DNA of 18,024 bases from Promethearchaeati archaeon (GTDB lineage: Archaea; Asgardarchaeota; Heimdallarchaeia; JABLTI01), in the NCBI GenBank assembly GCA_013166835.1, contig JABLTI010000048.1:1-18024 (forward strand). Direction: 5' to 3'. Shown piece after piece: positions 1-18,024 of the stretch (its first letter is position 1; every line of letters begins with the position of its first letter). The notes under the pieces were generated by a model that saw only the letters and a program-made list of their open reading frames with translations, was not told the origin of the DNA and made no database searches. The translations under genes and the position numbers were made by a program.

Positions 1-219
1 CAATTTGCTGGAAATCAATTTGTGGCTTGTTCCAAGTGTGGAGCGATTTATGCTACGGTTGATATTCTCGAGGAAATTAAAGATGAATTCGAGTTAATCG
101 ACTCGAAAATAGTTTCTCTATGTCCTGTGTGTAGAAGAGAACAAGTTGGGGAGGATTATGTGAATCTAAGTAAATACCTTATCTCAGCTAATCTAGCAAC
201 AGAGGAGGAAGTTAAATGA
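1..219 (+). CDS. 5'-truncated iron-sulfur/Zn-finger protein (C-terminal CxxC...CPxCRR module) of the hdr cluster
   Basis: Frame 1 is open from base 1 (QFAGNQFVACSKCG...), so the gene probably starts upstream of the window rather than at the GTG at 22. CSKCG-x~26-LCPVCRR resembles the C-terminal tail of HycF/NuoI-like and other ferredoxin-type proteins. The stop overlaps the hdrC start (ATGA, 216-219). Confidence 0.6.
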   Translation, partial: QFAGNQFVACSKCGAIYATVDILEEIKDEFELIDSKIVSLCPVCRREQVGEDYVNLSKYLISANLATEEEVK

Positions 220-704
220 TTTTCGATGAAACTGCGTGTTATATTTGTGCTAAATGTACTAGTGGGTGTCCAACAGCTGTCTATGATCCTTCGTTCAAAC
301 CACATGTAATTGTTGCCCGATCAAAAGTGGATAGAGATGAATTATTGAATGATGAAAATATGTGGTATTGTGTTTTATGCAAAAGATGTGAGCGTCGCTG
401 TCCACAAAATGTCTCTCCCCTTCTAATTGTAACAGAGCTAAAGAATGAAAGCTACAAATGTGCGAAAGCACATGTTCCAAAAGGATTCGAGGTCTTGAGC
501 AGACTTCTTAGAGAAACAGGCTTATCTTCTAAGGAAGAAATTATCATAACCGAAGATTTTGATGAATATAATCGAGAAGAGATAGGATTACCACCTCTTC
601 CGAAAGTTAATACGAAGGCTATTACAGAAGCCTTAACTGAGCTTGGCTTTTTCGATACCGGATGTGAAGACAAGAAAGCCAAAGCAGGAACTACGGAGGA
701 ATAA
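216..704 (+). CDS. hdrC: Heterodisulfide reductase subunit C-like protein (2x[4Fe-4S])
   Basis: Motifs CYICAKCTSGCP and WYCVLCKRCERRCPQNV; directly upstream of hdrB; GAGGAGG upstream of the ATG. Confidence 0.9.
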   Translation: MIFDETACYICAKCTSGCPTAVYDPSFKPHVIVARSKVDRDELLNDENMWYCVLCKRCERRCPQNVSPLLIVTELKNESYKCAKAHVPKGFEVLSRLLRETGLSSKEEIIITEDFDEYNREEIGLPPLPKVNTKAITEALTELGFFDTGCEDKKAKAGTTEE

Positions 705-706
705 CC

Positions 707-1552
707 ATGGACAAAGCCTATCTTTACTTAGGGTGTAAAGTACCTACTTCCCAATATGCCTTTGAGTTATCTGTTCGAACAATTATAAAAGAGCTAAATC
801 TACCAATTGAAGTACAAGAAGAATTCAATTGTTGTGGTTTTCCATTTATATCATTAGATAAAACTGCCTGGCTTTATCTTGCAGCCAGGAATATGGCTGT
901 AGCCGAAAAAGAAAAAAGAAATCTTATTCCCATATGCAATGGTTGCTTTTTATCTTTCAATGAAGCAAGAGCAGAATTACTTGTGGATTCGGAAGTACGT
1001 AAGAAGATAAACAAGCAATTAGCCAAAGAAGGTCTCACATTTAAAGGAAAACTAAGGATTGTTCATCTTGTAGATGTCTTTTACGAAGCTCGAGAGGAAA
1101 TAAAAGCAAAAGTAACTAAAGAATTCTCGAAAAAGAAAATTGCTGTACATTTAGGTTGTCATGGCGAGGAAGAACGTGGCGAAGAACAAATTGATGGAAT
1201 TCCTCGATTAGAAAAAATGATGACTATTATGAAAGATATTGGATTAGAAACTGAAGCATATCCTACTCTTCATGAGTGCTGTGGAGCAGGTGGCATCATA
1301 TCAGAACATGAAATGCCATTTAGAATGACTGGTAACAAACTTACTGAGCTCATGGAGATGGGCTATGAAGGAATGGCAACTATTTGTCCTTTCTGCCAAA
1401 GTCAATATGAAACAAAACAAGCTGTTATCTCACAGATAATTAAGAAGGAAGTGAAACTTCCAGTTTATTATCTCACACAACTTATGGGGATGGCTTGGGG
1501 TTTAGATGAAGAATCACTAGGATTACACCTAAATTCATCCCATACACAATAA
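707..1552 (+). CDS. hdrB: Heterodisulfide reductase subunit B-like protein (two CCG domains)
   Basis: YLGC...FNCCGFP...CNGCF and HLGCH...ECCGAGG...ICPFCQSQYE, ending LPVYYLTQLMGMAWG. All ten CCG-domain cysteines are present. GGAGGA upstream of the ATG. Confidence 0.92.
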   Translation: MDKAYLYLGCKVPTSQYAFELSVRTIIKELNLPIEVQEEFNCCGFPFISLDKTAWLYLAARNMAVAEKEKRNLIPICNGCFLSFNEARAELLVDSEVRKKINKQLAKEGLTFKGKLRIVHLVDVFYEAREEIKAKVTKEFSKKKIAVHLGCHGEEERGEEQIDGIPRLEKMMTIMKDIGLETEAYPTLHECCGAGGIISEHEMPFRMTGNKLTELMEMGYEGMATICPFCQSQYETKQAVISQIIKKEVKLPVYYLTQLMGMAWGLDEESLGLHLNSSHTQ

Positions 1553-6226: not shown

Positions 6227-6255
6227 GTGAGGGGGGAAATTAATCCCCGGTTCAC
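6227..6255. terminator. Second stem-loop between convergent genes
   Basis: GTGA-gg-GGGGA-aattaa-TCCCC-ggt-TCAC; GC-rich inverted repeat in an AT-rich spacer. Confidence 0.45.
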
Positions 6256-6297
6256 CTATTTCACATATTTTTAATAAAAGCAAAAATGAATTGATCA

Positions 6298-6564
6298 TTA
6301 GGCTTTACCAATAAATGGTTTAGCTTTTGATCCATCGCTGCATGTTGGAACTTCCATTGTTTTTCCACAGTCTGGAACAACACAGATCAATTGGTCACCT
6401 TCGAGTTCCATCGATTCTCCACAGCAAATAGGCCATTCAATAATTGATCCATCTGGGCATTTGAATTGGAGTTTCATTTCTGATTCTTGCGCTTTAGTTT
6501 TTGTTTCTTGTAGTTTTACGCCTTTTAGATCATCTTCTGATACTTGCATATCTTTATCTGACAT
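6298..6564 (-). CDS. Small Cys-rich metal-binding protein with beta-thymosin/WH2-like N-terminus (hypothetical)
   Basis: 88 aa; six Cys (CPDGS, PICCGESM, CVVPDCG, CSDGS); fills the gap between two hairpin-bounded genes; GGTG-type RBS upstream. Confidence refers to the CDS; the function is inferred. Confidence 0.8.
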   Translation of the reverse strand: MSDKDMQVSEDDLKGVKLQETKTKAQESEMKLQFKCPDGSIIEWPICCGESMELEGDQLICVVPDCGKTMEVPTCSDGSKAKPFIGKA

Positions 6565-6682
6565 TGGTAGATAAACACCATCCTTCCCTATTGGGACTCT
6601 TGATAGTTATTTAATATTATGTTATTGACAATTGAAATATAAAATTAATTCAAAGGATTATATTGTCGAGACAAAAATAAGG

Positions 6683-6710
6683 AAAAAAGGTTGAAAAATT
6701 GTCTCAACCT
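6683..6710 (-). terminator. Hairpin plus oligo-T terminator of the amidohydrolase gene
   Basis: Minus strand AGGTTGA-gacaatttt-TCAACCT followed by TTTTT, about 20 nt after the stop codon. Confidence 0.6.
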
Positions 6711-10703: not shown

Positions 10704-12200
10704 ATGAGTGAAGAAGCTAGCAATCTCAGTCAAAAGCAACTGGAAAAATTGATTAGTAAAGCTAAAGAAATGGGTTATTCCAATCTGGCATTCTTTATAG
10801 ATGATCTTGACATGCTTTTGCGTTCTGCTAACTTATTGAAGCAAAAAGATATGAAATATTTTGAATTAGAGAATTTAATTACCCTCTTAATTAACAAGGA
10901 TATCAGCCTCGGCATGGCGCCACGAATGATTAGTATGGTGTCAAAATATTCTGAAAGAAATGAGGAATTAGAAACAGAAAATGCTTCTATGAAGCAGTCA
11001 AATATCACCATGCAAAGTAAATATCAGACAGCTGAGACACAAGTAAAAGAGCTTCAAAAACAAATCAAAGAATTGTCAGCTGGTGCCAGGTCTGATGCAA
11101 AAATAAAAGAAGAAAGTATAAAGCTCTCTGAAGAAAACAAGTACCTAAAAATTACTAATAAATCACTATCTGACGACCTTAAGAAAACTAAAGAAAAATT
11201 AGACAAAAAATTAGAGGAAGCAAATAATCTTGAGGTAGAGAATAGTCAATTAGAATTGAAGATGAAGGATCTTCAAAGAGAACTAAAAGAAGTTGATCTA
11301 GAATTAACTGACGAAAAGAAGAAAGTTAAGGGTAGAGATGAGACTAGAAAGAAAATTGAAGATTTAATTGAAGAATTAGATGAATTGTATCCAACAACTG
11401 ATGATCCCTTTAAGAGAGAATTCATTGCATTTATGGGAGTAGAACTTTCAGAAATCGCTGATAATAGGAATATAACTAGACAAAAAATTCTCAATCAAAT
11501 AGCAATTCATGCAAGAGAAATTGAGAAAATCTTTGAGCCAAGAATGGCTACTATGCAACCAACGGTTCGTACACCTATGAGACAACCTACTCAAGTAGAA
11601 ACTCCTGTTGAGACCACACCAGTCAAAGTAGAACCTTTTGTAGAAGAAGTAAAGGAAGTAATTCCCGAACCTGTTAAAAGGCAACCAATTAAAGAAGAAC
11701 CTGTTGCTGAATTGGTTGAGGATATTGATGACAATGATGTAGGAAATAGGTATGTAAAACCAAGTGAATTCCTTAAAGGAAAAAGCATTCATTCAGGTGA
11801 AGCAAAAGAAGAAGCACCTAAAATTGAAGTAAAAGAAGAGGTTGTTGCAACTACAGCACCAGTTGAAAAAACAGAGGAAAAAGAAGAAGAAATTGCTATT
11901 CCAACACCAAAACCTGTTTCAATTCCCAAGAAAAAGAAAAAAGGAAAAGCTGAACCAATAGACAGAACTCCAAGTTCAGATCTAGTGAAAGTTTTCGATG
12001 TTTTCATTAAGTATCTTGAGGCTATAACTGACAATAGCTCATTCAACGATTTGTGTGATAAGCTTATCGAAGAGCTATACGAACATGTAGGTTCTCCTGG
12101 AATGACTAAAGTCTATAAGATCAAGAGTGGTGGAGTTAAAAGAAAACAAATGCTAATTGATCTTATTAAGAAATGGCAAGTAAAATTACCTGAGATGTAA
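10704..12200 (+). CDS. Hypothetical protein: long coiled coil, P/E/V/K-rich linker and small C-terminal helical domain
   Basis: Heptad-patterned E/K/L-rich region at about aa 82-228; Pro/Glu/Val/Lys-rich region at about aa 280-425; amphipathic helices in the last ~75 aa. Confidence 0.85.
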   Translation: MSEEASNLSQKQLEKLISKAKEMGYSNLAFFIDDLDMLLRSANLLKQKDMKYFELENLITLLINKDISLGMAPRMISMVSKYSERNEELETENASMKQSNITMQSKYQTAETQVKELQKQIKELSAGARSDAKIKEESIKLSEENKYLKITNKSLSDDLKKTKEKLDKKLEEANNLEVENSQLELKMKDLQRELKEVDLELTDEKKKVKGRDETRKKIEDLIEELDELYPTTDDPFKREFIAFMGVELSEIADNRNITRQKILNQIAIHAREIEKIFEPRMATMQPTVRTPMRQPTQVETPVETTPVKVEPFVEEVKEVIPEPVKRQPIKEEPVAELVEDIDDNDVGNRYVKPSEFLKGKSIHSGEAKEEAPKIEVKEEVVATTAPVEKTEEKEEEIAIPTPKPVSIPKKKKKGKAEPIDRTPSSDLVKVFDVFIKYLEAITDNSSFNDLCDKLIEELYEHVGSPGMTKVYKIKSGGVKRKQMLIDLIKKWQVKLPEM

Positions 12201-12251: not shown

Positions 12252-12818
12252 TTAAATGTGAATATCACCAATTAGATTTAATGCATGTGCTGACATACCT
12301 GCATTATCAAATCGTATTCTCACCTGTCTAGATTTACTCTTTCCATGTATACCAGTGACTACCCCTTTAGCTGTGGCTTCACTATCAGGAAATTCAAGAA
12401 CGAATTTCTTGCCTATCAATGCTTTATGATTACAATCATCTAATATTTTAGCAATAGCTTGATTGGTTGTTTGCAATCTATTATTTCTTCGATAACTTAG
12501 AATCTGAGCTTTTATAATTTTTAATTTTCTAGATCTAGGTTTTGCTGTGGTTGTTGGTTTTTTGGTTGTAGTTTTTGCTGCAGGTTTCTTGGTAACTGGT
12601 TTTTTAGCTGTTGTTGTTGGTTTCTTAGGTGTAGGTTTCTTTGCAGCGGTTGTTGGTTTCTTTGTAGAGGTTTTAGCACCAGTTGGTTTCTTCTTTGTTG
12701 CTTTTGTTGTTTTCTTCGGAGGAGATTTTTTACTTGTTGCTTTTTTTGCTGTACTTTTTGCAGCTTGTTTTTTAGCTGTTGTTTTCTTGGTTGTTGGTTT
12801 TTTGCTTTTTTCAGACAT
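12252..12818 (-). CDS. rpl35ae: 50S ribosomal protein L35Ae (eL33) with long Lys/Thr/Ala/Pro-rich N-terminal extension
   Basis: The C-terminal ~88 aa (IKAQILSYRR...LIGK...KGVVTGIHG...VRIRF..GMSAHAL) match the archaeal L35Ae pattern. ATG at 12818 follows GTGA; the ORF track start is GTG 12827. Confidence 0.88.
   Translation of the reverse strand: MSEKSKKPTTKKTTAKKQAAKSTAKKATSKKSPPKKTTKATKKKPTGAKTSTKKPTTAAKKPTPKKPTTTAKKPVTKKPAAKTTTKKPTTTAKPRSRKLKIIKAQILSYRRNNRLQTTNQAIAKILDDCNHKALIGKKFVLEFPDSEATAKGVVTGIHGKSKSRQVRIRFDNAGMSAHALNLIGDIHI
12538..12803 (-). repeat. Degenerate KKP(T/V/A)/AKK peptide repeats within the L35Ae extension
   Basis: KKPTTKK, KKPTGAK, KKPTTAAKK, KKPTPKK, KKPTTTAKK, KKPVTKK, KKPAAK, KKPTTTAK; seen on the + strand as recurrent GTTGGTTT and TTTTTAGCTGTTGTT. 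Confidence 0.75.
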
Positions 12819-12865
12819 AAAAATCACATTTTAGTATTCTCTAATTTAGGGGACAAAGGGTCTAC

Positions 12866-12928: not shown

Positions 12929-14371
12929 TTATATGTCTTGATCTTTTTCTTCGCCTTTGAAATGATTCTCTACTGCCAATAGTGTTCTTTCTAGGGCTTC
13001 AAGAAATTCCTCAATTTCCTTCTTTTTAATTGAAATTACCCGACCAGATTGATGAACGAGAGTATTTCGCTTTTTACGAATTGTATCAAATGCTTTTTCT
13101 TCTTTTTCGGAAATCATTCCCTTTTCTTTTAAGAATTGAAGAATCATAGAAAAATTATTGTAAATTTCAATTGGGGCATCAAATCTATCTATAAGACTCT
13201 TGAACAATTGTTCTGTTGATCTAAACAGAAATACTAAAGCTGTTGCATGTTCTTCTTCCGATATTTTATCCCACAATTTCAATCGATTTTTTACATATTC
13301 AATATCTGTTTTGAGAGAGTTTACTTCATGTTCATAACTGAAAACATCTCGAGCAATCTCATAGATAGGGCTATCAAAAAACCTATCTTTTATTATCGCG
13401 GTTTGCTTTGCTGTTACCTTTAATTCATCTAGAATTGGTTTATAGATTCTCCAAGCTTGTTGTTTAGCAACTTGATTTCTTGAATAGACTCTCAATGCCT
13501 CACCAAGAGACTCAGAGAATTCTTGCTGATAAATTGGATCTATTCTTCTTGAGTGTTTTCTTAATAAGCGATCCCCAACAAGGCTTTCAATAGGAAATTG
13601 ACTCAAAGCACGAATGTAATTACTTTGCTTGATTCGCTCTTCTTCATCAATATAGATAACAATTGGAAGTGTTTCTAAGATTAACTTCCTAAGACGACCA
13701 ATGGAATATATTGCTATGATATTACTAAGAATTATGAAAATAATAAAGAGTGAAGCAAAAATAGCCACATTTATTGGATTATCAATTTTATCGATTATAA
13801 TGAAATCAAATGAAATTTCTCTAAAATGAAGAATTACTACTCCTACAAAATTTGCTACAGAAAAAATTGCCCAGATAACTGAGAAAAGAAGCAAAGATTC
13901 AAAGCTGCTAAGTAGGTTTTCTTTTTTACTTTCCTTTGTTCTACTGACGTAAGAGTCAATGTATAATCCTCTTACTTCTTTTACTAATTGTGGAATTAAT
14001 TTTTCCTCTATGGATTTTTCAATTTTAACTTTTTGTTTTGTGGATACTCCATCTACATCATCTGAAAAAATAAACAAAGAATCAACATTCTTCTTTAAAC
14101 TTGTTTCATACTCTTTTCCAATTCCACAGATAAAATAGATGAACATTGGTGATATTATATAGAAGAAAAGAGCCGGAGCAATGAAGATTAGAATCCAAAT
14201 GACTAAGTAAATCAACCATGTGACATCAAGCTTAACACCTCTTAATGCAGTATAAATTGCAAATACTAAGAATTCCAAGATTAGTGGTACGTAAACCCCA
14301 AGTAGGAATCTTTGATTGAATAATGCATTTGTAACTCTTTGTCTTGAGAAGCTCATGATTTTCACTAGCAT
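12929..14371 (-). CDS. Multi-pass membrane protein (about 4 TM helices) with putative C-terminal HEPN domain
   Basis: Hydrophobic segments at about aa 22-44, 52-83, 158-182 and 200-224. The C-terminus has ATALVFLFRSTEQLFKSL and RKKRNTLVH (Rx4H). Alternative start at ATG 14356. Confidence 0.75.
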   Translation of the reverse strand: MLVKIMSFSRQRVTNALFNQRFLLGVYVPLILEFLVFAIYTALRGVKLDVTWLIYLVIWILIFIAPALFFYIISPMFIYFICGIGKEYETSLKKNVDSLFIFSDDVDGVSTKQKVKIEKSIEEKLIPQLVKEVRGLYIDSYVSRTKESKKENLLSSFESLLLFSVIWAIFSVANFVGVVILHFREISFDFIIIDKIDNPINVAIFASLFIIFIILSNIIAIYSIGRLRKLILETLPIVIYIDEEERIKQSNYIRALSQFPIESLVGDRLLRKHSRRIDPIYQQEFSESLGEALRVYSRNQVAKQQAWRIYKPILDELKVTAKQTAIIKDRFFDSPIYEIARDVFSYEHEVNSLKTDIEYVKNRLKLWDKISEEEHATALVFLFRSTEQLFKSLIDRFDAPIEIYNNFSMILQFLKEKGMISEKEEKAFDTIRKKRNTLVHQSGRVISIKKKEIEEFLEALERTLLAVENHFKGEEKDQDI

Positions 14372-16009: not shown

Positions 16010-17197
16010 TTGTCAAATTCATCGTTGTACCAATATGCATCTAAATATGCACAAAAAGCATATGATCAAGATAAAGCTGGAAATTATAAAGCAGCTCATC
16101 AAAATTATTTGAAAGCTGCGGAAGTTCTTCAACAGCTTATTGGTTTTACAAGTAATCCCCAATTAAAGAATATGTACTATATTAAAGCTAAAGAGTACCT
16201 CGCACGTGCTTCTGAATTGAAAGATCAAGGATTACAGAGAGTAGATAGTGGAGGAAGAAAGAAAGGTTCTAAAAAAAGTAGCAAAAAAGGTCCTGATTCC
16301 GATACTGATGAAGAAGAGGATGAATTAGAAGAAGCAATTTCTGAAATAATTGTTGTTGAAAAACCAAATGTGAAGATGAGTCAAGTAGCAGGATTAGAAG
16401 AAGCGAAAAGAGCTTTGAGAGAAGCAATCATCCTTCCTATGAAACGTCCTGATTTATTTAAAGGAGCAAGAAATCCTTGGAGAGGAATTTTACTTTTTGG
16501 TGCACCTGGTACTGGCAAAACACTATTAGCTAGAGCTGTTGCTACTGAAGTAGATGCAACTTTCTTTAATGTAAGTGCATCTAGCATCATTTCAAAGTGG
16601 TTAGGGGAATCAGAAAAATTGGTCACACAATTATTTGAAACAGCTATTGATAAACAACCATCATTGATTTTCATTGATGAAGTAGATAGTATTGCTTCTG
16701 CTCGTGGTGGAGGAGAGCACGATGCTATGCGCCGTGTGAAAACCACATTAATGACACAAATGGATGGAGTAACTACAAAGAAAGAAGATCGAATTGTGGT
16801 CATTGGTGCAACAAACCTTCCATGGGAATTAGATCCTGCTTTTAGAAGCAGATTCGAAAAGAGAATTTATATCAACTTGCCTGATTTACCAGCAAGATCA
16901 AAAATCTTCGAAATCCACACGAAGGGTGTAGAATGTGATGCGTCTGTTGATTTTAGTTTGCTAGGTGAAACTAGCGAAGGTTATTCAGGACGTGACATTC
17001 AGATGCTTTGTCGTGAAGCTGTGATGATGCCTGTCAGAGAATTAGATATATCTGGAGCTTTAGATAATCCCGATATTAAAGCAAGAAATGTTATTATGCA
17101 AGATTTCATAACAGCAATGGAAAAAATTAAACCAAGTGTAGCTCCCGAAGAATTATTACGTCATCGTGGTTGGGCAGAAGAATTCGGAAGCATGTAG
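16010..17197 (+). CDS. vps4: Vps4-like AAA+ ATPase with N-terminal MIT domain (ESCRT-III disassembly ATPase)
   Basis: MIT domain (KAYDQDKAGNYKAAHQNY...KAKEYLARASELK), EKPNVK...VAGLEEAK..LREAIILP, Walker A GAPGTGKT, pore loop SKWLGESEK, Walker B FIDEVD, GATNLPWELD, GYSGRDI and C-terminal EEFG. Confidence 0.93.
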   Translation: MSNSSLYQYASKYAQKAYDQDKAGNYKAAHQNYLKAAEVLQQLIGFTSNPQLKNMYYIKAKEYLARASELKDQGLQRVDSGGRKKGSKKSSKKGPDSDTDEEEDELEEAISEIIVVEKPNVKMSQVAGLEEAKRALREAIILPMKRPDLFKGARNPWRGILLFGAPGTGKTLLARAVATEVDATFFNVSASSIISKWLGESEKLVTQLFETAIDKQPSLIFIDEVDSIASARGGGEHDAMRRVKTTLMTQMDGVTTKKEDRIVVIGATNLPWELDPAFRSRFEKRIYINLPDLPARSKIFEIHTKGVECDASVDFSLLGETSEGYSGRDIQMLCREAVMMPVRELDISGALDNPDIKARNVIMQDFITAMEKIKPSVAPEELLRHRGWAEEFGSM

Positions 17198-17322
17198 TAA
17201 TTCTAATACAAAGCAAACATAAAAACAAAACTCCGTAAGAATGAAACAACGGTTAAACTAAAAAATAAGATAGAATTAAATAAAATGACAGTGTGTGAAT
17301 AATATCTCAGTGGGATAGTTAT

Positions 17323-18024
17323 ATGTCAGTTAGAGAAAAGAAACCAAAATCTAAACCAAAGAAGAAGGAGAAATCCGGTTCTGTGAAGGAGAAGGTTAAA
17401 GAGAAAACTGAAGTTAAACCCACGAAAGAAACTAAAACTGAGACAAAACCTCCACGAGAAGCTACCGTTACTATTTCTTTAATAGAAAATCCTGTTACAA
17501 CAGAAGAGAAAATCTATAATGCTATGCTAAGGATTGAACAACTAATTCAATCAGATGTAGCAATATCTCGAGAGGATTTGTTCGATTTAGGACAAGATAT
17601 TGAAAGACAATTGAAAGAAATTCTGCCTGAATGGATAGATAAACCTTGGATGTATGTGACTCCAGAACACCAAAAACAACTGGATTCTTGGTGCTCTGAT
17701 TGGTCGAATTTTATCATAGAATATGCTCGAATTAATATCAAACATATCATTCACATTGAAGAGGAACGATCTAAATATCCATTCAACAACAAACAAACTA
17801 AGAAGAAATTAGATAGAGAGCAATTACAAGAAATTGGCGATTACATTGTAGCCCAAGAGATGGGAATTTGGTGGGATAAAAAGAAAATCCGACTTCGACT
17901 TTATTGGCGCACTCTTGATGAATGGGCAGATATTATTTATGAATGGAGTATTAAAACTGGTCGAGCTGCTGGTGCTGAGAGAGTCATGACTATTATTGAT
18001 ATTCAAGAAGCAGGTCAAACTTGG
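17323..18024 (+). CDS. vps25: ESCRT-II Vps25-like protein with ~100-aa N-terminal extension (3'-truncated; absent from the ORF track)
   Basis: Translated by hand: ATG 17323, 234 codons with no stop to the window end. QKQLDSWCS, YPFNNKQTKKKL and WWDKKKIRLRLYWRTLDEWADIIYEW parallel human VPS25 as I recall it (QKQLAAWCS, PLFNNVKLQRKL, WLDKSKSSFLIMWRRPEEWGKLIYQW). Confidence 0.9.
   Translation, partial: MSVREKKPKSKPKKKEKSGSVKEKVKEKTEVKPTKETKTETKPPREATVTISLIENPVTTEEKIYNAMLRIEQLIQSDVAISREDLFDLGQDIERQLKEILPEWIDKPWMYVTPEHQKQLDSWCSDWSNFIIEYARINIKHIIHIEEERSKYPFNNKQTKKKLDREQLQEIGDYIVAQEMGIWWDKKKIRLRLYWRTLDEWADIIYEWSIKTGRAAGAERVMTIIDIQEAGQTW

Follow-up and report, generated by a model that had tools for sequence, protein, structure and literature searches.

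An Asgard microprotein family joining a conserved, predicted disordered tail to a Cys-rich module shared with heavy-metal ATPases

We describe a small gene from an Asgard archaeon (Promethearchaeati archaeon, Heimdallarchaeia; GenBank assembly GCA_013166835.1), located on an 18,024-nucleotide stretch of contig JABLTI010000048.1 that was analysed at its full length and is referred to here as the window. The gene encodes a microprotein of 88 residues, in which an N-terminal tail, predicted to be disordered yet strongly conserved, precedes a Cys-rich domain homologous to a module at the C-termini of Asgard heavy-metal ATPases. We read the product, with moderate confidence, as a metal-binding microprotein whose tail would serve as a docking motif for a partner protein.

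A microprotein gene with a constrained tail

The gene is an 88-codon open reading frame (ORF) on the minus strand at 6564..6298 of the window, taken from the list of ORFs and their translations and ending in a TAA stop codon at 6298-6300. Translation of 6298-6564 (-) reproduces the protein start read in an earlier, sequence-only inspection of the window (the first-pass annotation), with residues 1-23 encoded by 6496-6564. Homologues, the ratio of nonsynonymous to synonymous substitution rates (dN/dS) and RNA contigs together show that this gene is real. The RNA contigs come from two metatranscriptome libraries belonging to two studies: two read-length contigs of run X13 span 6269-6563 at 99-100% identity, and a 577-nt contig of run X20 spans 6229-6668 at 90-95% identity, i.e. 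it derives from a relative. These contigs, from which level, strand and ends cannot be read and in which DNA carry-over is possible, are compatible with transcription of the microprotein gene, short of proof. We draw no conclusion from the absence of coverage over neighbouring genes in run X13.

A word-indexed search returned 12 close homologues (70-95% identity), whose labels, where they have a name, are Heimdallarchaeota or Asgard, and an exhaustive search of representatives added more relatives at 36-45% identity; the named cluster members of these distant relatives are Hodarchaeales, Thorarchaeota and Promethearchaeota. Profile searching enlarged the family set to 28. Three long matches from the search of representatives (P0015, P0017 and P0018) were rejected as relatives, being repetitive or of low complexity and matched by composition. 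Other labels are borne by one Micrarchaeia homologue of 65 residues, which has no tail, by one cluster member labelled Zixibacteria (P0027), a doubtful assignment, and by one Bathyarchaeia-labelled carrier (L015), whose label looks wrong because its locus shows the Heimdall-type gene order and its actin scores 447 bits. The first-pass annotation had described a stand-alone archaeal microprotein, and this description holds, the relatives being Asgard-labelled apart from two doubtful labels of metagenome-assembled genomes (MAGs).

Matches to the family profile (A3) are found in 177 of 301 Asgard genomes. Tail and domain occur together, in ORFs of ~87-160 residues, in f1 (11/11), the Heimdall family to which the window protein belongs, in part of family f4 (genus g7), in f7, in one genus of f2 and in f22. 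The domain occurs without the tail in 72 of 76 genomes of f11 and in 58 of 68 genomes of f14, where the family profile matches the domain part only. At three loci (L012, L013 and L014) and in the P0006 cluster, an upstream in-frame start leads to annotated products of 113-161 residues; the conserved product is the 88-residue form.

The tail comprises residues 1-28 (6481..6564 (-)) and is of mixed acidic and basic character. In the AlphaFold2 (AF2) model of the window protein (P0001), built from 26 sequences, the predicted local distance difference test score (pLDDT) is below 50 at residues 1-5 and 13-28 and ~78-80 in the domain, and the helix ahead of the tail motif amounts to 3 residues at low confidence. 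Calculated from 10 distinct genes, residues 2-28 have a dN/dS of 0.131 and residues 35-88 one of 0.196, and 19 of 34 tail positions are invariant in the close family versus 24 of 54 in the remainder of the protein. A segment that is predicted to be disordered, and on which purifying selection is nevertheless no weaker than on the folded part, is a functional one.

Within this segment lies a short core motif, which in the window protein reads L18-Q-E-T-K-T23 (6496..6513 (-)). In an alignment of 31 tail-bearing sequences, all of which retain the core (L-x-x-[T/V]-x-T), the Leu is invariant, a Thr follows five residues later in at least 90%, and L-x-x-[T/V] is found in 29, the other two carrying a one-residue insertion. 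The core takes the form L-Q/K-E-T-x-T in f1 (L-K-E-T-x-T in most orthologues, LKKT once), L-E-H-[V/T]-E-T in most other lineages, and L-T-R-V-E-T, L-A-K-T-E-T or L-T-H-V-E/D-T in a few sequences. It is preceded by an acidic stretch, a single conserved hydrophobic residue and either Gly or Ala, the distance from the conserved hydrophobic residue to the Leu of the core varying between 5 and 9 residues. When a profile of the tail was run, with all filters off, against the six frames of the genome that contains the window (the host genome), it retrieved the microprotein ORF alone (E 1.9e-17), with the next best match at E 3.1; a protein-atlas feature search gave no usable match for the tail.

The Cys-rich module and its relatives on metal pumps

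Residues 35-88 (6301..6462 (-)) make up a putative metal-binding domain with six cysteines (C36, C47, C48, C61, C66 and C75), probably a beta-rich nested double knuckle. Aligned with hhalign, the profile of the close family (A1) matches an ATPase C-terminus at a probability of 94% (E 1.5e-7, 37 columns), and the A3 profile matches ATPase C-termini with per-genome E values of 1e-8 to 1e-13. The first-pass annotation had taken the C-terminal half of the protein for a metal-binding domain; these profile matches tie it to the C-termini of heavy-metal ATPases, and on this sequence evidence the microprotein domain is homologous to the ATPase C-terminal module.

In all three large ORFs that we read in f14 (L050-L052), the extreme C-terminus is taken up by the module, in one copy or two. 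By eye, the same ORFs contain the ATPase motifs GMTCxxC, CPC and DKTGT as well as YHS-like repeats, and Pfam assigns HMA, E1-E2_ATPase, Hydrolase and YHS domains to L050. The module also occurs as free ORFs of 53-62 residues, directly behind P-type ATPase genes, at L046, L047, L048, L049 and L068. The host genome encodes three P-type ATPases, and in this genome the module profile finds the microprotein only. As an observation on the pumps themselves, the Asgard P1B-type ATPases of L052 (3376-6579 (-)), L050 and L051 combine up to four kinds of metal domain per chain, with an N-terminal HMA domain, one or two YHS/TRASH-like repeats and one or two C-terminal Cys/His modules.

In its ATPase form, the module has eight putative ligands in four knuckles (CxxC, HC, Cx5C and HH/HC) plus Met residues. 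The microprotein shares with it the order of the four knuckles and the central motif G-[D/N]-x-L-x-C; unlike the ATPase and free modules, the corresponding region of the window protein has six Cys, no His and one Met, and the conserved tail is added. Within f1, eight Cys are present in 3 sequences and six in 9, the window protein having six; the second Cys of knuckle 1 never occurs without that of knuckle 4, nor the reverse. Because these two extra Cys are lost or kept together, we infer that knuckles 1 and 4 form an outer site and knuckles 2 and 3 an inner one. The window protein would then possess an inner Cys4 site (C47, C48, C61 and C66) and, since the other two ligands of the outer site have been lost together, a Cys2 remnant of the outer site (C36 and C75).

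This outer and inner pairing, deduced from the joint loss of Cys, resembles that of nested double zinc ribbons such as the PriA Cys-rich region and YfgJ. Both are among the weak fold neighbours of the domain, along with Rpb9, the knuckles of MetRS and desulforedoxin; the PriA Cys-rich region stands among the Foldseek rows of best probability (0.85-0.90), and the desulforedoxin structure 1cfw gives a structural match at Z 2.1. The commonest weak match in Pfam is Desulfoferrod_N (PF06397), found in 5 of 15 members, always under the 23-bit cut-off and at best with E 9e-4; P0001 itself has no PF06397 match. One relative is named 'primosomal protein N'' by one source. What separates the microprotein from PriA and desulforedoxin is that the scores fall below thresholds and that the window offers no helicase or redox-enzyme context.

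A further comparison is with the C(P)XCG zinc-finger micro-proteins of Haloferax volcanii, which, in the parts of PMC6562870 and PMC11241148 available to us, are likewise archaeal microproteins with CPxCG-like knuckles. As described there, the Haloferax proteins differ from ours in having no tail, and the best sequence relation is E=3, between one member and HVO_2753_ZBP. The relatives of the present family are moreover Asgard-labelled, bar the doubtful MAG labels and the one tail-less Micrarchaeia homologue. Our literature searches, which covered the module and Asgard zinc microproteins, found no report of the module.

On our preferred reading, the gene would encode a small soluble metal-binding protein. 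Its residues 35-88 would form a beta-rich, nested two-site Cys knuckle of the type seen in the PriA Cys-rich region, zinc ribbons and desulforedoxin, and would represent a free-living relative of the unnamed module carried by Asgard P1B ATPase C-termini and by the genes of 53-58 residues behind them. Residues 1-28 would be a short linear motif, consisting of an acidic stretch, one hydrophobic residue, Gly and L-x-x-[T/V]-x-T, through which the metal module may be docked onto a partner protein. An analogy is offered by metallochaperones of the CopZ/Atx1 type, which are free copies of a pump metal-binding domain; the microprotein would similarly be a small soluble homologue of a metal-binding domain of a P1B pump. 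It differs from them in being built of Cys knuckles instead of the HMA ferredoxin-like fold, and in that the tail-bearing genes do not lie beside pump genes.

Several observations weigh against a metal-binding protein with a docking tail. In neither Pfam nor NCBIfam does any model reach its cut-off over the module, and the fold matches obtained with two models are all weak (Foldseek E>=0.13, VIA Z<=2.6); because nothing was found at E<=0.001 or Z>=5, we claim no fold beyond 'zinc-knuckle-like'. None of 13 scanned neighbour proteins of distant tail-bearing genes is an ATPase, and the f1 microprotein genes are flanked by M20 peptidase and HAD hydrolase genes, not by an ATPase gene. In f11, none of 12 free modules (54-58 residues; L056-L067) lies within 3 kb of an ATPase gene. 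These modules sit in a conserved same-strand cluster with genes for a 2x[4Fe-4S] ferredoxin, an acyl-CoA dehydrogenase, a nitroreductase and ORFs of 121-137 and ~410 residues, for example at L066 709-5696 (-), the locus on which Pfam was run; the dehydrogenase and the nitroreductase flanking clusters are each common to 11 of the 12 loci. Finally, the tail of one distant relative, P0040, is predicted to be partly ordered. Two alternatives grow out of the last two of these points.

Because of the f11 redox cluster, the module may serve redox or structural roles instead of metal trafficking. Taken to its end, this would mean a zinc ribbon of purely structural function or an electron carrier of the Fe(Cys)4 type, and would make the microprotein a regulatory or redox factor unrelated to metal trafficking, with roles such as binding nucleic acid, the ribosome or an enzyme. 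Such a role would suit the weak neighbours of the domain (ribosomal-protein zinc ribbons, Rpb9, the PriA Cys-rich region and desulforedoxin) as well as the f11 cluster with its ferredoxin, acyl-CoA dehydrogenase and nitroreductase genes. The acidic tail, however, is ill-suited to nucleic-acid binding, and fusions of the module are seen only to heavy-metal ATPases that also bear HMA and YHS domains. We consider this alternative unlikely.

The second alternative keeps the metal and changes the role of the tail. P0040 carries a core of the L-E-H-V-E-T type, and in its AF2 model (31 sequences) the domain has a pLDDT of 94-96 and the tail one of 57-74, with a helix at residues 13-20. The P0040 tail reaches 72-74 with a short, 8-residue helix (pLDDT ~74), and because it is predicted partly ordered, the tail may lie packed against the domain rather than dock a partner. 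It would then act within the molecule as a lid or an extra strand, folded over the Cys module and tuning access to the metal sites. Beyond the P0040 model, in which an ordered strand leads into the domain, this view draws on the tail always occurring with the module and never on another protein, and on the His or Glu at motif position 3, which could approach the metal. On the other side, the tail of the window protein is predicted with a pLDDT below 50, and motif position 3, which varies among H, E, K and R from one lineage to another, is not a fixed ligand. The module, moreover, works without a tail on ATPases and as free proteins of 53-58 residues. We give an intramolecular tail a small chance, on a par with that of the purely structural or redox module.

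The tail and the question of actin

The first-pass annotation had read the start of the protein as a possible motif for binding actin, akin to beta-thymosins and WH2 domains. Beta-thymosins (PF01290) are an animal-lineage family; the microprotein resembles them in its MSDK start and in Leu18 followed by x-x-T-x-T in the same ungapped register, both segments being disordered. Compared by eye with the human thymosin beta-4 sequence printed in PMC5988510, the protein shows 8 ungapped identities over 23 positions, including the initiator Met (M1, S2, D3, K4, K17, L18, T21 and T23). The sequence and the identities had thus been read correctly, but the likeness is not beyond chance: with the Met taken as given, the probability of at least 7 matches in 22 is 2e-4 to 4e-3 at a per-site match probability of 0.06-0.10. 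In a scan covering so large a number of N-termini, an identity of this size appears unremarkable.

Nor do family models recognise the likeness. HMMER searches of 177,635 sequences of the Protein Data Bank (PDB) with the protein, the family profile and the 34-residue tail returned no thymosin, WH2 or other actin binder at E<=10. In Pfam, P0001 matches two sub-threshold families at E<=10, neither of them Thymosin nor WH2, and it has no family in NCBIfam. The scoring against these two Pfam models that the first-pass annotation had proposed was negative at E<=10 in 9 of 9 members, i.e. P0001 and 8 further members taken singly, among them the sole LKKT orthologue; neither model appears among the 25 families displayed, out of 47, for 15 members. 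Scans of the host genome likewise missed the microprotein ORF, both with PF01290, whose sole match lies on another contig (14.4 bits, E 0.16), and with PF02205 (WH2), which hit two other ORFs at 14 and 11.4 bits. One of these two is by our own reading a PAS/GAF-type sensor and the other a membrane zinc-ribbon protein, and similar noise occurs in control genomes (6 of 14 for PF01290, 8 of 14 for PF02205).

The residues that matter in thymosin are also missing. The two lysines of the thymosin beta-4 motif are reported to be critical (PMC2174335); in the LQETKT of the window protein they are replaced by Q and E. The first-pass annotation had asked for a conservation check and for LKKT or LKET in orthologues: the tail motif is conserved, with LKET in most close orthologues, and LKKT occurs in only 1 of 31 tail-bearing sequences. 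Because the MSDK start and the thymosin register are restricted to f1, the feature shared by the whole family is the short core, not the N-anchored likeness; the L-E-H-V-E-T of older-looking relatives lies farther from the N-terminus. There is also a difference in architecture, a beta-thymosin being fully disordered over ~43 residues, with helices at both termini that arise on actin, whereas residues 29-88 of the 88-residue microprotein fold as a beta-rich Cys domain. With no match to the hidden Markov models (HMMs), no lysine pair and a register limited to one Heimdall family, the window protein belongs, as judged from its sequence, neither to the beta-thymosins nor to the WH2 family.

A looser kinship to actin-binding linkers deserves separate weighing. 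The host genome encodes an actin of 379 residues (448 bits), ~60% identical to eukaryotic actins, and a two-domain gelsolin of 219 residues (L017 1426-2085 (+), which is contig C235 of G000) whose linker reads LIHVDT; its Pfam Gelsolin matches all lie on other contigs, none being attached to the microprotein. Of three carrier genomes checked, two have an actin, and the remaining one (2.3 Mb) is perhaps incomplete. In published work, Asgard gelsolins touch actin through a WH2-like linker, with LRRV in Thor (PMC7444086); the Heimdall linker motifs LKHV and LRRT contact actin, as does LVDV of Loki, in which Ca2+ links the Asp to Asp25 of actin (PMC9433394); and the motif of the L. ossiferum gelsolin is LKDV (bioRxiv 10.1101/2025.11.30.690169). 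In what we could access of the work on thymosin and WH2 in Asgard archaea, we met no free archaeal thymosin or WH2 protein.

The microprotein tail shares with WH2 (PF02205) and with the D1-D2 linker of Asgard gelsolins (PMC7444086, PMC9433394) a helix-prone stretch, a Gly and L-x-x-[T/V]. It differs in standing N-terminal to a metal module, not C-terminal to a gelsolin domain, and in the weakness of its amphipathic helix. A further parallel lies in the distant microproteins, whose L-E-H-V-E-T recalls the L-[K/I]-H-[V/I]-[D/E]-x of linkers in Heimdall-class gelsolins. Across 29 such gelsolins the linker consensus is G-D-T-P-G-F-L-K-H-[V/I/F]-[D/E], and L-x-H-[V/I/F]-[D/E] is present in 19; among the tail-bearing microproteins, 14 of 31 have L-x-H-[V/T]-[E/D], the window protein not being one of them. 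In host ORFs of at least 150 residues, the L-x-H pattern occurs 33 times in 925,812 residues, corresponding to ~0.1% per 30-residue tail, a figure for a pattern that was defined after both sequences had been seen.

Such a kinship would make the tail a WH2- or gelsolin-linker-like actin-binding motif and the protein a metal-coupled binder of actin monomers, an explanation that we regard as improbable. Its geometry would be that of thymosin, WH2 and the gelsolin D1-D2 linker, with a short helix near the barbed-face cleft and L-x-x-[T/V] running up the face of actin. The resemblance of 14 of the 31 microproteins to 19 of the 29 gelsolin linkers, expected in ~0.1% of tails, is its best point, and the bona fide actin and two-domain gelsolin of the host, the LKKT of one orthologue and a tail that is disordered yet conserved, as is typical of such motifs, are in keeping with it. 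Acidic variants such as LKET would be compatible with actin contact because LVDV and LKDV are known from Asgard gelsolins.

Against these points stands, first, the post hoc choice of the L-x-H pattern. The window protein has LQET, and all f1 microproteins are without the His, although f1 gelsolins keep it. Because the pre-motif stretch has a single conserved hydrophobic residue at a variable distance (5-9 residues) from the motif, it would make a poor cleft-binding helix. To this are added the missing lysines of thymosin beta-4 and the absence of any Thymosin or WH2 HMM match at E<=10 and of any match to a PDB sequence. The loci scanned have no actin-related neighbour gene (among the 13 neighbour proteins of distant tail-bearing genes there is no actin, profilin or gelsolin), and the tail profile finds no second copy of the tail on other host proteins. 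We therefore doubt that the tail, L-E-H-V-E-T in most lineages and L-K-E-T here, on what would be a pump-derived metal module, is a linear motif for actin, and rate this slightly below the two alternatives weighed above.

Gene surroundings and what the family means

The microprotein gene lies downstream of an M20 peptidase gene on the same strand and is convergent with a HAD hydrolase gene. A terminator-like hairpin with a T-run, found by consensus scan behind the upstream M20 gene (6688..6710 (-); a 9-pair stem followed by TTTTTCC; 2 such sites found versus 0.6 expected), separates the two same-strand genes. Direct reading of the putative upstream leader (6576..6643 (-)) gives an AT-rich, TATA-like stretch at 6616-6643 (-) and a purine-rich GGGAAGGATGGTG at 6576-6588 (-), 12-24 nt ahead of the ATG; a sigma-70-type scan flags 6643-6616, and as archaeal promoters lie outside that model the leader is assigned tentatively. 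An oligo-T tract, TTTTTGCTTTT, read directly at 6276..6286 (-), 12 nt past the stop codon, is a possible archaeal termination signal.

The gene order TPR, MazG, M20, microprotein, HAD, AsnC, lyase, epimerase is the same in all 8 related MAG loci compared, which come from close kin. At distant tail-bearing loci the neighbours vary, comprising a CitMHS transporter, an amidohydrolase with an Asn synthase, a longin-like protein with a Ras GTPase, hydrolases, and an aminotransferase with a PfkB protein. We rejected the neighbourhood as a clue to function, the conserved order being confined to near relatives and the distant loci differing, with no consistent partner. In two genomes of genus g7 (L040 555-2446; L041 377-2266), the tail-bearing gene lies between genes for a longin-like protein (Fuz_longin_1, below cut-off) and a Ras-family small GTPase.

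Elsewhere in the window, a Vps4-type ATPase (MIT, AAA and Vps4_C; 16010-17197 (+)) is followed by a gene for a subunit of endosomal sorting complex required for transport II (ESCRT-II), which is cut by the window end (17323-18024 (+)); 16010-18024 is an Asgard ESCRT cluster, and the window is Asgard-like. With a Vps4 in the window, we considered a MIM1-type Vps4-binding motif for the tail and rejected it by eye, its Leu and Arg spacing not fitting the consensus. A 4Fe-4S dicluster protein (216-704 (+)) and the CCG-domain protein that follows it (707-1552 (+)) look like an HdrD-like or glycolate-oxidase Fe-S subunit. Three ORFs of 498, 191 and 480 residues (10704-12200 (+), 12252-12827 (-) and 12929-14371 (-)) match no Pfam family at E<=0.001, the last having a sub-threshold match to DUF4145.

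If the tail did bind actin, Heimdall- and Hod-type Asgards would couple the availability of actin monomers to metal or redox state, through a regulator without a eukaryotic counterpart. A binder of this kind, free and similar to WH2 or thymosin, would constitute a third class, a claim for which the present microprotein offers weak grounds. What the analysis defines is an Asgard microprotein family in which the disordered tail and the folded part are equally constrained. It further brings to light a Cys/His module, so far uncurated, on the C-termini of Asgard heavy-metal ATPases, which several families have released as free small genes. Whichever way a test turns out, its outcome would give a name to a nameless family.

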